Sequence record: OW991345
Length of the DNA: 64,000 bases
Reading direction: 5' to 3' (one strand)
Source: Escherichia phage vB_Eco_AL25
The notes under the pieces were generated by a model, which did not search any database, was not told where the DNA came from, and saw only the letters and a list, made by a program, of their open reading frames with translations. Made by a program: the position numbers and the translations under genes. The stretch's first letter is position 1; the number at the start of each line of letters is the position of its first letter. Of the stretch, positions 28,187 to 64,000 are shown piece by piece.

Positions 28187-34760
<6,574 letters not shown>

Positions 34761-38220: not shown

Positions 38221-38379
38221 ATAGGAAGTCTATTAGATAGATACCCTATAATTTTTTCTTAGTGAAAATAGTCATAGTTACTTATGAGTTCAGTATTTGG
38301 TGGGGCTACACCCCTTACACCATAAGCACCCCCCCCCCTGTCTTTACTAGTGTAGCCTTAGCCTACCCCACCTTGTACA

Positions 38380-38991: not shown

Positions 38992-39369
38992 ACTACTTTT
39001 GCTAAAACCTTTGGTCAGGCTTCTACTAAAACCGAATCCAACAATGGTTCTCGTCCGAAAGCTCAGTTCTGGATTAACGTTGGCTATGTAGCTAATGAAG
39101 GCACTGAAGATGAACGTTTCATCTCTCTGCCTACTGGTATTCCACTGGATACTCAGGAGCATCTGCCAACCAATTCCTCTAACGAAGACTTCCGTGCAAT
39201 GCGTTGTGCACAGAACGATTTGTTAGACCAACTGATGGAATTTGCTAAGACTCTGGAACCAGGTCAGGAAGGAGTTATCTCACTGCAAGTTCAACTTCGT
39301 CGAGTTAAAGAAGAAGCTCCTGCTATCTCAGCAAGTGAGAATAAATATGCTCGTAAACTGACTTTTTAA
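38992..39369 (+). CDS. early hypothetical protein, 125 aa
   Basis: RBS GGAGAG 6 nt upstream of ATG; the TTG start at 38872 in the ORF track lies inside the promoter. Confidence 0.55.
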
Positions 39370-59255: not shown

Positions 59256-60575
59256 ATGTATAAAAGTACTACTAAGCTGCCACTAAATCCTGGTCAAGAG
59301 GCAGCGGCAGAAGGCTTCTTCGACTTTCTGCTCGACCCCAATGCTTCTGAACTTCGTATTAGTGGACCTGGTGGTACAGGCAAGACATTTACAATGGCTC
59401 ATATGATTGACGAGATTATGCCCCGTTATCATGAGACATGTAGTCTGATGGGAATCCCTGCTCTCTATAACGAAGTTATTATGACTGCTACTACTAATAA
59501 GGCAGCAGAAGTATTAGCCCGTGCAACAGGGCGTCCTACGTCTACCTATCATTCCTTTCAAGGTCTGACAGTACGGAATAACCTAAAGACTGGGGAAGCA
59601 GACCTGATTCCGTCTAAGTCCTTCAGTATCAAAAAGAATAAGGTCATTTTTATTGATGAAGCATCAATGATTGACCGTAAACTGAAGAAGTTTATTAACG
59701 AAGGTACTCACCAAAGTAAGATTGTTTACTTAGGTGATAAATGCCAATTGTTACCTGTAAAGGAAACTTCTTCACCTGTCTACAATGACAGTAGCATTAA
59801 AGAGTTTATGCTGACCCAGCAGATGCGTACTGATGTCCCTGAACTCCATGCACTGCATGAACAACTTCGTGGAACCATTGAAGGTAAGCACGGATTCCTG
59901 CCTATTAAAGCAGTTCCAGGTATTATCGACTGGATTGAAGATGGTGATGAAATGAGAAAAGAAGTCGAAGGTCATTTCATGACTAAGACTGACACTCGTA
60001 TTGTTGCCTATACCAACCAACAGGTTGTTAACTATAACACCTTCATTCGAGCCATGAATGGATTCCACGGAGAGTTCTGTATTGGTGAAGAGTTAGTAAG
60101 TAACTCTGCTATTCAGATTGGTGCTGGTGACCGCCTCAGTATTGAACAGGAATGCCAGATTGTTGACCAGGATTCTGCTACTCGTAAGATTCTGATTGAT
60201 TCCTCTGGCATCGAATTAGAAGTACGTGATTGCACCCTGGATACTGGTTATGGTGGTGTCTTTGAAGGTATCCCTATTCCGGTAGATATGGATTATTTCA
60301 TTCGTTTGCAAAAGTACTATGCACACCAAAAGAACTGGGAACGTCACTTCTATTTGAAAGAAACATTCCCTGAACTTCGAGCATTACATGCTTCTACTGT
60401 GCATAAGTCTCAAGGTTCTACCTACGACACCATCTTTATTGATGCTACTGATTTATCTACTTGCCGTCAGCCTGATGTAGTAGCACGTCTGCTTTATGTA
60501 GCAGTATCTCGTGCTCGTCATCGTGTTGTGTTCTATGGCTCTTTGGCAGAGAAATTTGGTGGTCTGGTTCGCTAA
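59256..60575 (+). CDS. SF1 DNA helicase (Dda/RecD-like), 439 aa
   Basis: Walker A GPGGTGKT; Walker B IFIDEASM; STVHKSQGSTYD motif. Confidence 0.8.
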   Translation: MYKSTTKLPLNPGQEAAAEGFFDFLLDPNASELRISGPGGTGKTFTMAHMIDEIMPRYHETCSLMGIPALYNEVIMTATTNKAAEVLARATGRPTSTYHSFQGLTVRNNLKTGEADLIPSKSFSIKKNKVIFIDEASMIDRKLKKFINEGTHQSKIVYLGDKCQLLPVKETSSPVYNDSSIKEFMLTQQMRTDVPELHALHEQLRGTIEGKHGFLPIKAVPGIIDWIEDGDEMRKEVEGHFMTKTDTRIVAYTNQQVVNYNTFIRAMNGFHGEFCIGEELVSNSAIQIGAGDRLSIEQECQIVDQDSATRKILIDSSGIELEVRDCTLDTGYGGVFEGIPIPVDMDYFIRLQKYYAHQKNWERHFYLKETFPELRALHASTVHKSQGSTYDTIFIDATDLSTCRQPDVVARLLYVAVSRARHRVVFYGSLAEKFGGLVR

Positions 60576-60584
60576 GGAGAACTT

Positions 60585-61112
60585 ATGCAACTGGGTGAAA
60601 AACAAATCCGTGAAATGACTAATAGTAGTGAACTGGTTCAGGAATTATTCTTAGCCGAGTTACGTCGGCTAGATAAAGTACTGGATAGTATCATTACACG
60701 TAATGGGGAAACATTCGCTGTATACAACTCAACAGGGTTCCTGTATTTAGGGGAGTTCTATTCGAGTTCCCGTTCATCACAACAACCCCCTTCTGGTCAT
60801 CGTCTGGCTCTAGCTAATCACCTACTGGATGATATGCGGGAGTATCTGGAACAAGCAGGTAAACTTCTGCTAGAAGTCCATATGGTAAATCAGATGGTCT
60901 TTCGTCTGGTTCAGGGCTGTAAGACTTATCAAGACGTTCGTGATGCATTGCCAGAATGCCTCATTGCTATGGATAAACAGGGTCATCTGAAATCCTTACA
61001 GAGAACCAGAAAGGCAGCATTTACTCTGGATAATGATGCTATGGCTCTCCGTCAGTATGAGAAAATCTTACCGATTATCGAATACTATGCGGGAACCCAT
61101 CTTATCTTTTGA
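60585..61112 (+). CDS. hypothetical protein, 175 aa
   Basis: ORF between helicase and polymerase. Confidence 0.5.
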   Translation: MQLGEKQIREMTNSSELVQELFLAELRRLDKVLDSIITRNGETFAVYNSTGFLYLGEFYSSSRSSQQPPSGHRLALANHLLDDMREYLEQAGKLLLEVHMVNQMVFRLVQGCKTYQDVRDALPECLIAMDKQGHLKSLQRTRKAAFTLDNDAMALRQYEKILPIIEYYAGTHLIF

Positions 61113-61119
61113 GGTCTGT

Positions 61120-63060
61120 ATGCGTCACATTACATTCAACAATGAGGGTATCTACCCTATTGCTATCCTTACTACAACGTTACGTAAGGATGATATTGTC
61201 AAAGCATACATGGAACCCTGGGATGTAGATAAAGATTCAGTAATGATTCTTGAACTTCATACAGCCCCAGGGAAAAAGAAAACTCCTGCTAAAGAGATGC
61301 AGGAGTTTATTACCCAAGAATTAGTGCCAGCATTAGAAGCAGCACAAACTCAGTATATCATCTGTGGTGATTCTGAATATTACAAACAGCTAACCAAACA
61401 AGGTAAAGCTGATGCCAATATTGGCTATGTAATGGATTGTGCTTATGGGAACCAGAAAGTTATTTACGTTCCCAATTACAGACAAATCTTTTATGACCCG
61501 GATAAGGTAAAGACTAAGATTGCTTTATCTATGCAGGCTCTGATTGATTATGTCTCTGGTTCTTATGTTGAGCCAGGAACTAAGATTATCCACTATGCTG
61601 ATTATCCATTAACTCCAGAAGCTATATCTAAGTGGTTAGATAAGTTACTGGAGATGAATGTTCCGTTAGCAGTGGATATAGAAACTTTCAGTCTGAAGCA
61701 TTATGACTGTGGTATAGGCACTATTACATTCTGCTGGAACAAGCACGAAGGGATAGCATTCCCTGTGGATTATGAACCAATTGAGGGAGCTACTGAAGCT
61801 CCTTATGGTAGACAAGTTCACAACATGCTTGTTCGTTCCATGCTCAGGGACTTTTTTATTAAGTATCTGAACAGGCAGATGTATCACAATATTGCCTTTG
61901 ACGTATATGCACTCATTTACCAGTTATTTATGACAGACCTTCTGGATACGGAAGGGTTGTTGCATGGCATGAGTATCATGCTAAGAAACTGGGATTGCAC
62001 TAAGTTAATTACCTATCTGGCCACTAATTCTTGTGCTGGTAATAAGCTAAGTCTTAAAGACCAGGCTCAGGAATATGCTGGTAACTATGCTCAAGAAGAA
62101 ATCAATGACATTACCAGAATCCCATTAGCAGAGTTGTTGGAATACAACTTAGTGGATGGATTATGTACCTGGTATGTCTATGAAAAGCATTGGGATACTC
62201 TGGTTAATGACCAACAGTTAGATGTTTATACAAACATCTTTAAACCTGCATGTGAAGATATTATTCAAATGCAGTTAACTGGTATGCCTATCAATATGAA
62301 GACAGTATTGGAGGTAGAAGAAGCATTAACCCAAGACTATAACAATGCGTTAAAAACGATTGCTGACAGTAAAGTAATCAAAGATTTTACCCGTCTTCTT
62401 AATGAAGAATGGGTAGAAAAACAGAACCAGATTCTGAAGAAGAAACGAGTAACTTTAGCTGATGCTAAAGAGCAGTTTAATCCAAACTCAGGTATTCAAT
62501 TACAGAAGCTACTTTTTGAGTTTCTGGAGTTACCCGTACTGGGTCTGACTGCAAGTAAACTACCTGCTACTGGTAGTGGCATACTCAAGTCTTTGAAGAA
62601 CCATACTCAAGATACCAGTATTCTGGAAATTCTTGATGCTCTGATTGATTACAAAGCTGTAGATAAAATTCTGACAGCATTCATCCCAGCATTAAAAAAT
62701 GCCAGACAAGGACCAGATGGTTGGCATTATCTCTTTGGTAATCTGAACTTAGGTGGGACTGTATCAGGTCGTCTATCCAGTAGTGAACCAAACCTACAGA
62801 ACCTACCTTCTGGTTCCAGATATGCCAAGATGATTAAGAAATGCTTTGAGGCTCCCCCTGGGTGGATATTCTGTGGGCTAGACTTTGCTTCTCTCGAAGA
62901 CCGTATATCTGCTTTAACAACCAAAGACCCTAACAAGCTGAAGGTGTACATGGGTGTGACTGTTTATACAGTTACTATAGAAGGAGTTGACCATCATATC
63001 CGAGATGATGATACAATCGTTTATGATGGTAAAACTTATACCGGTGAGGAGTTACCCTAA
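61120..63060 (+). CDS. family A DNA polymerase, N-terminal part (3'-5' exonuclease domain through motif A); frame ends inside a 127-bp tandem duplication
   Basis: Exo I LAVDIETFSL, Exo II HNIAFDVYAL, motif A GLDFASLEDRI; RBS GAGG; terminates at TAA 63058-63060 (would run to TGA 63209-63211 with one repeat copy removed). Confidence 0.8.
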   Translation: MRHITFNNEGIYPIAILTTTLRKDDIVKAYMEPWDVDKDSVMILELHTAPGKKKTPAKEMQEFITQELVPALEAAQTQYIICGDSEYYKQLTKQGKADANIGYVMDCAYGNQKVIYVPNYRQIFYDPDKVKTKIALSMQALIDYVSGSYVEPGTKIIHYADYPLTPEAISKWLDKLLEMNVPLAVDIETFSLKHYDCGIGTITFCWNKHEGIAFPVDYEPIEGATEAPYGRQVHNMLVRSMLRDFFIKYLNRQMYHNIAFDVYALIYQLFMTDLLDTEGLLHGMSIMLRNWDCTKLITYLATNSCAGNKLSLKDQAQEYAGNYAQEEINDITRIPLAELLEYNLVDGLCTWYVYEKHWDTLVNDQQLDVYTNIFKPACEDIIQMQLTGMPINMKTVLEVEEALTQDYNNALKTIADSKVIKDFTRLLNEEWVEKQNQILKKKRVTLADAKEQFNPNSGIQLQKLLFEFLELPVLGLTASKLPATGSGILKSLKNHTQDTSILEILDALIDYKAVDKILTAFIPALKNARQGPDGWHYLFGNLNLGGTVSGRLSSSEPNLQNLPSGSRYAKMIKKCFEAPPGWIFCGLDFASLEDRISALTTKDPNKLKVYMGVTVYTVTIEGVDHHIRDDDTIVYDGKTYTGEELP

Positions 63061-63180
63061 CAAGCTGAAGGTGTACATGGGTGTGACTGTTTATACAGTT
63101 ACTATAGAAGGAGTTGACCATCATATCCGAGATGATGATACAATCGTTTATGATGGTAAAACTTATACCGGTGAGGAGTT
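62927..63180. repeat. exact 2 x 127-bp tandem direct duplication
   Basis: 62927-63053 identical to 63054-63180 by base-by-base reading; flanks differ. Confidence 0.9.
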
Positions 63181-63780
63181 CTATGACGCTTTTACCCGTG
63201 GCCTTCTATGAACAACGGTATAAGATTTCCGATGAAGGTTTCATCTTAAATCTTGCAAACAATCAACCCCTAAAACCGACTCTCAATCCTAACGGATACC
63301 TTAAGGTTGGGTTAGCTAATGGGGATGGTACACATCACCAAGAGCTACTTCATATTCTGGTAGCTAAACACTTCATCCCTAATCCTTATGGCTATGAACA
63401 GGTGAACCATAAAGATGGTAATAAACTGCATTGTCATAAGGATAATCTGGAATGGTGCTCTGCTACTCAGAATGTTGAACATGCACTTAAAACAAGGCTA
63501 CGTCCTGGTTACATGTCTGCTGACGATAAAGAAAAGTATCTCTTTGAGGTGCTGGCAGGTAAGCAAGTTAAAGACATTGCTTTTGAAATAGGTAGACGTC
63601 CTGAAACTTTGCATAAGATGCTCAGAACTACTGCTGACCGACTTGGTGTTCGAAATGAGTGGGATGATGTTATGAGGAGAAATAGAAAAGATGTTGCTTT
63701 ACGACAGCTTGCCAAAATCAACTCATGACTTCACTGGCAAGAAAATTGACAACGTAGTCAAAGCCGGGAGTTCATCAGGT
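63083..63780 (+). mobile_element. HNH homing-endonuclease insertion interrupting the DNA polymerase gene (group I intron or free-standing HEG); boundaries approximate
   Basis: Polymerase motif A upstream, motif-B-like KAPTFALTYQG downstream in another ORF; HNH ORF in between. Confidence 0.5.
63183..63728 (+). CDS. HNH homing endonuclease, 181 aa
   Basis: HHQELLH...VNHKDGNKLHCHKDNLEWCSATQNVEH (HNH); C-terminal helix-turn-helix-like tail; RBS GGTGAGGAG. Confidence 0.75.
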   Translation: MTLLPVAFYEQRYKISDEGFILNLANNQPLKPTLNPNGYLKVGLANGDGTHHQELLHILVAKHFIPNPYGYEQVNHKDGNKLHCHKDNLEWCSATQNVEHALKTRLRPGYMSADDKEKYLFEVLAGKQVKDIAFEIGRRPETLHKMLRTTADRLGVRNEWDDVMRRNRKDVALRQLAKINS

Positions 63781-64000
63781 TACGATGGGCATAGTCTTCG
63801 TGCATATGCTTACTTCGGTGAGATGATGCCCGACATTAAAGATACGGTAGAGTCTGTTAATTCTATTCAGGAGAAGTACAAAGCATATCGTCAGGATTCT
63901 AAAGCACCTACCTTTGCTCTTACCTATCAGGGTACGTACATCACTTTGATGAAGAACTGTGGTTTCCCTGAACAGAAAGCTCGAATGGTTGAGGAACGTT
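63691..64000 (+). CDS. family A DNA polymerase, C-terminal part (partial; continues beyond window)
   Basis: GYDGHSLRAYAYFG and motif-B-like RQDSKAPTFALTYQG; possible ATG at 63691 with GAGGAG 11 nt upstream; open to window edge. Confidence 0.6.
   Translation, partial: MLLYDSLPKSTHDFTGKKIDNVVKAGSSSGYDGHSLRAYAYFGEMMPDIKDTVESVNSIQEKYKAYRQDSKAPTFALTYQGTYITLMKNCGFPEQKARMVEER

Follow-up and report, generated by a model that had tools for sequence, protein, structure and literature searches.

An exact 127-bp tandem repeat in the split DNA polymerase gene of an N4-like coliphage record is very probably an untrimmed assembly overlap

Two identical, directly adjacent 127-bp units lie within the DNA polymerase gene of the N4-like coliphage (Schitoviridae, Enquatrovirus) in sequence record OW991345, of which a stretch of 64,000 nucleotides (the window) was analysed. 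We regard this repeat, very probably, as the leftover end overlap of an assembly with k = 127 that was made internal by rotation of the contig, and as such an error of the record and not a biological feature. A preliminary description of the window had already proposed an assembly artefact of this kind (k = 127, rotated without trimming). This proposal is sustained by the single copy found in the relatives, by similar redundancies in sister records, by the circular assembly of the genome and by an origin that the record shares with other phages.

Direct comparison of the two copies showed that positions 62927-63053 equal positions 63054-63180 base for base (127 + 127). On neither side does the identity continue past the unit (0 bases left, 0 bases right), which bears out the earlier claim of two identical 127-bp copies with differing flanks. 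Tandem Repeats Finder reported a period of 127, 2.0 copies, 100% matches and a score of 508, and this is the sole tandem array with a score of at least 100 in the 64 kb window. An exact adjacent 127-mer cannot have arisen by chance (~4^-127). The features of the repeat are as follows:

62927..63053, no strand assigned: copy 1 of the 127-bp unit, with exact identity to copy 2
63054..63180, no strand assigned: copy 2, the redundant one; removal of either unit yields the sequence seen in all relatives
63053..63054, no strand assigned: junction of the copies, ..GGTGAGGAGTT / ACCCTAACAAG.., its core also given as ..CCGGTGAGGAGTT / ACCCTAACAAGCTG..; artificial, and presumably the point at which the raw contig's old ends were joined

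The gene that bears the repeat encodes a family A DNA polymerase, the counterpart of N4 gp39 (Pfam DNA_pol_A, E = 2.6e-25). Whereas the DNA polymerase of N4 itself is a single 859-aa ORF, reading ..KLKVY-TD-GYDGH.. at the corresponding site, the gene in the window is divided by a cassette that carries an HNH endonuclease gene. The cassette replaces 6 nt (the codons TD) of the N4 DNA polymerase gene, so that a net 694 nt are missing in N4 at this site. DNA_pol_A is found on both sides of the HNH_3/NUMOD4 ORF, and N4, which lacks the cassette, is otherwise collinear. In the relatives, the gene between the polymerase fragments is annotated as an HNH homing endonuclease. The features of the locus are as follows:

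61120..63211, plus strand: gene for the N-terminal fragment of the polymerase, according to the annotations of SPSP_039, PMBT57, Jura and VEc25; covers Pfam DNA_pol_A positions 12-180 of 381
62951..63777, plus strand: cassette absent from N4, delimited by alignments to N4; 700 nt real and 127 nt artefactual
63058..63060, plus strand: false TAA stop from the +127 (+1) frameshift, giving the protein end ..TGEELP instead of ..TGEEFYDAFTRGLL
63183..63728, plus strand: HNH homing endonuclease of 181 aa; Pfam HNH_3 at 26.1 bits and NUMOD4 at 23.8 bits, both above the cut-offs
63691..64000, plus strand: start of the C-terminal fragment of the polymerase (ATG at 63691; 276 aa in the relatives), which runs past the end of the window

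The cassette contributes a 44-aa tail to the N-terminal fragment, the 181-aa HNH gene and a 29-aa leader to the C-terminal fragment. The 127-bp unit straddles its 5' boundary, being composed of 24 nt of conserved polymerase sequence (62927-62950, ..DPNKLKVY) and 103 nt of the cassette start (62951-63053). In copy 1, these last 103 nt encode the tail of the N-terminal fragment of the polymerase, and the ATG of the HNH gene lies 3 nt beyond the end of copy 2.

The split of an N4-like DNA polymerase gene by an HNH cassette is already known biology and is to be kept apart from the artefact, around which it forms a real feature. An HNH interruption of the DNA polymerase has been published for phage Pollock (PMC4319500) and for the Vibrio N4-like phages JA1 and VchO139-I (PMC3670811). 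The Pollock-type cassette and that of the window have in common an HNH_3/NUMOD4 endonuclease between two DNA_pol_A fragments, with N4 lacking the cassette. Whereas the arrangement in Pollock and PMBT57 is annotated as intron-encoded, no group I intron core of Rfam was matched in 60000-64000 at E up to 1, and the flanks of the HNH gene in the window look translated. Outside the HNH ORF, only ~105 + 49 nt of the cassette are left, and these encode the conserved tail and leader. From the sequence, the polymerase looks like a protein expressed as two polypeptides with dedicated extensions, which might keep the two halves in contact, and not 'intron-encoded' as annotated.

Pollock, SP5M and PD205 conserve both extensions, namely the 44-aa tail (MGVTVYTVTIEGVDHHIRDDDTIVYDGKTYTGEEFYDAFTRGLL) that ends the N-terminal fragment and the 29-aa leader that begins the C-terminal one. 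Compared with Pollock, the codons of the tail carry 10 synonymous and 3 nonsynonymous changes. With mostly synonymous change across genera, the tail appears to be under purifying selection. In PD205 (ON922919.1, 2175-2653 of the examined piece), the polymerase fragments are separated by a gap of ~480 nt without an annotated gene. The HNH endonuclease, which the relatives carry at this position, is there either unannotated or decayed.

The coding effect of the extra copy is small, as only the final 10 codons of the N-terminal fragment are affected. The ORF that starts at 61033/61120 stops at 63060, where the predicted frameshift stop was indeed found as a TAA just inside copy 2 (63058-63060). 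Natively, the N-terminal fragment stops with a TGA at 63209-63211, 151 nt past 63060. As the window stands, the fragment measures 646 aa, compared with 654 aa in the relatives and in the one-copy form, and the frameshift swaps the final 10 residues FYDAFTRGLL for LP. Of the claim that the duplication shifts the polymerase frame, the stop thus proved real; no long frame is lost, the gene being natively split 151 nt downstream. In all relatives, the end of this fragment overlaps the beginning of the HNH gene, an overlap that the extra copy abolishes.

The position of the repeat invites a biological reading, namely a genuine and very recent 127-bp tandem duplication at the 5' junction of the HNH cassette, arising, for instance, through slipped replication or through misrepair of a homing-endonuclease break. 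The unit straddles the polymerase/cassette junction with 24 nt on one side and 103 nt on the other and ends 3 nt short of the HNH ATG. A homing-endonuclease junction is a plausible place for recombination, which makes the location look suggestive. Since the N-terminal fragment would lose only 10 C-terminal residues, such a change would be compatible with viability, and genuine recent tandem duplications in phages consist of identical head-to-tail copies, as seen here. However, the boundaries of the repeat show no microhomology (0 shared bases past the unit on either side), a feature that is common, although not obligatory, in genuine tandem duplication. Moreover, the tail that would be lost is conserved across genera with mostly synonymous change, and the duplication would abolish a stop/start overlap that is universal in the relatives.

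The relatives themselves offer the most direct comparison. These were identified by megablast of positions 61500-64000 (2501 b), which retrieved Escherichia phage vB_Eco_SPSP (OV049961.1) at 100% identity and AlfredRasser, Jura, VEc25, PMBT57 and six BEU phages at 98-99.5%. All close relatives with the cassette (11/11) align over 2374 b, that is 2501 - 127, and have one copy each. When one copy was deleted, the region 61500-64000 matched SPSP with 0 mismatches in 2374 b. Comparison of the full window after de-duplication (63,873 b) with the SPSP circle leaves one SNP and a poly-C length difference, corresponding to 99.995% identity. The more distant cassette-bearing phages Pollock, SP5M and PD205 likewise contain the unit once each, at 85-87% identity.

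In line with these alignments, the junction 63053/63054 was absent from 12 of the 12 related loci examined. The exact HNH protein was found on five contigs (SPSP, VEc25, Jura and the Logan contigs of SRR16990453 and SRR11482367), and all five encode the 654-aa polymerase fragment and lack the junction. A search for the junction in viral, metagenome and genome contig collections gave no match; the native one-copy flank is equally absent from these, so this search is uninformative. The truncated 646-aa polymerase product had no match in assembly collections, and the 701-bp region had none in E. coli complete genomes or in the plasmid collection.

The sole substitution relative to SPSP in 63.9 kb lies at window position 33467, in a gene on the minus strand (32377-34047). 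The change is nonsynonymous and affects residue 194 of the putative tail fibre, where the window has I and SPSP_068 has T (T194I). The exact I194 tail-fibre protein of the window was not found in the assembly collection. Because of this nonsynonymous difference, the phage of the window is a clone or variant distinct from SPSP.

As a clone of its own, the source phage could carry a private mutation, which would accommodate a genuine duplication. Against this reading, only one copy is present in the near-identical SPSP and in every other relative. Genuine phage tandem duplications give no reason for a unit of exactly 127 bp, for the recurrence of the same length elsewhere, or for absence from a genome that is 99.995% identical.

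Such recurrence is precisely what the sister records display. In the SPSP record OV049961.1, bases 1-127 equal bases 70853-70979 exactly, while 128 bases are not equal. Once this end overlap is removed, the true SPSP circle measures 70,852 b. The overlap falls in gp2. Since it was left untrimmed, this gene has two annotations in the record, one being a partial CDS and the other a pseudogene joined over the origin. The record of vB_Eco_Jura (LR999871.1) has an exact internal 2 x 127-bp tandem repeat of its own at 7389-7642, in an intergenic region upstream of tRNA genes. In the window, the counterparts of both sequences are single copies:

39012..39138, no strand assigned: the 127-mer found at the SPSP record ends (comparison evidence), single copy in the window
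412..538, no strand assigned: the 127-mer duplicated in Jura (comparison evidence), single copy in the window

Three closely related phage assemblies thus contain an exact 127-bp redundancy at three unrelated places, a pattern indicative of an assembler-dependent process and not of the biology of a site. A literature search by the phage names SPSP and Jura found no paper on either.

The length of the repeat is exactly the final k reported for SPAdes. Artificial 127-bp end overlaps of SPAdes contigs, which come from circular or terminally redundant phage genomes, are documented as an artefact that has to be removed (PMC5923482, PMC9331655). The repeat of the window resembles this terminal overlap in the exactness of its copies, in the length of 127 and in the circular assembly of the genome. 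Whereas the end overlaps of SPAdes sit at the record ends, as in SPSP, the repeat in the window is internal and tandem, as in Jura LR999871.1.

A genuine duplication would have to account for a length that equals the largest SPAdes k, and for 127-bp redundancies of SPSP and Jura at unrelated places, which are unexpected for site-specific biology. It would leave the exact k, two sister artefacts and the shared record origin described below as coincidences. We consider it very unlikely. The preliminary description had ranked a real duplication at a homing site as the less likely alternative, and nothing supports it now, even though the repeat straddles the 5' junction of the HNH cassette. If it were true, the record would hold a snapshot of homing-site instability remodelling the C-terminus of a split replicative polymerase, and the match to the SPAdes k would be coincidental.

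The preferred reading, an end overlap made internal, presupposes that the genome was assembled as a circle, since circular assembly is the precondition for a k-mer overlap of the contig ends. This was the case: the window is continuous across the ends of the N4 record, passing from its right end to its left end at 38297/38298, and a sequence that reads through these ends must come from a genome assembled as a circle. The window is accordingly circularly permuted relative to the N4 record ends.

N4-like phages carry direct terminal repeats, and the 127-bp repeat might be thought to represent a real direct terminal repeat at the physical genome ends, joined head to tail in a circularised record. 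The N4 record ends, however, map to 38297/38298 in the window, ~25 kb away from 62927-63180, and the repeat lies inside an essential gene that is continuous in all relatives. Homology and the position of the N4 record ends refute this reading, to which we assign a negligible probability. Comparison of the first with the last 900 b of the N4 record revealed no common repeat.

The two ends of the window hold a further clue. The final base of the window, 64000, is aligned with the terminal base of the PMBT57 record (MG770228.1, 70857) and with that of Jura (71488), and window base 1 with position 6978 in both. The part of the SPSP circle that falls outside the window measures 6977 b. The source record would therefore comprise ~70,977 b (70,850 unique + 127) with the origin of PMBT57, the window being its last 64,000 b. 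Relatives with trimmed ends measure 70,849-70,857 b. A record end shared with PMBT57 and Jura implies re-origination to a reference, and from these alignments the origin was probably reset after assembly.

It could also be argued that the contig was never rotated. In this case, a raw circular contig would start at 63054 and end at 63053, and the repeat would have been made only when the 64-kb window was cut across the origin. SPSP was deposited in just such an untrimmed and unrotated form. This explanation would require a coincidence of ~1 in 70,000, since the window closes on the final base of the PMBT57 and Jura records and opens 6977 b downstream of their first base. In addition, Jura shows that a combination of the same origin with an internal 127-bp repeat exists as a deposited record. 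We find an unrotated contig extremely unlikely; it would in any case be the same k = 127 artefact, arising one step later.

Taken with rotation, the following sequence of events could have produced the repeat. Short reads of a genome essentially identical to that of SPSP would have gone into a de Bruijn assembly whose final k was 127, the largest reported for SPAdes. The terminal repeat would collapse, so that the genome emerges as a cycle, and this cycle would be written as a linear contig whose first 127 bases equal its last 127. The contig would then have been rotated to begin at the first base of the PMBT57 record. If the former ends were joined without trimming one copy of the overlap, an internal exact 2 x 127-bp tandem repeat would result. 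This would have landed at the 5' junction of the HNH cassette, shifting the frame and giving the false stop at 63058-63060. Here we infer both the assembler and the rotation step. On this account, re-origination ahead of any trimming explains why the repeat is internal rather than terminal. Where the old contig ends lie is arbitrary, and their proximity to the HNH cassette appears to be a coincidence.

A break of the assembly caused by a mixed population with and without the HNH cassette was considered and dropped as unnecessary. The 127-mer reaches 103 nt into the cassette and does not end at its boundary, and is thus not the branch vertex expected from a cassette-plus/minus mixture.

The importance of the 127-bp repeat is limited to data hygiene. 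The extra 127 bp make the record ~127 b too long, falsely give the N-terminal polymerase fragment 646 instead of 654 aa and break the overlap of this fragment with the HNH gene. Such an artefact would mislead gene callers, pseudogene counts and scans for repeats or frameshifts. As the untrimmed 127-bp overlap is also present in the public records OV049961.1 (at the ends) and LR999871.1 (internally), these are worth flagging. Screening for exact tandem or terminal repeats of 127, 99, 77 or 55 would remove such false findings.

Two minor observations concern the ends of the related records. The PMBT57 and Jura records start and end, at an arbitrary point, in the middle of the gene for the C-terminal polymerase fragment. 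Cut by the record origin, this gene is absent from the annotation of PMBT57 and partial in that of Jura. At 38329-38338, 31 nt inward of where the left end of the N4 record maps, a poly-C tract varies in length (C10 in the window, C12 in SPSP, C9 in N4), and this difference represents either homopolymer sequencing noise or real length variation beside the genome terminus.
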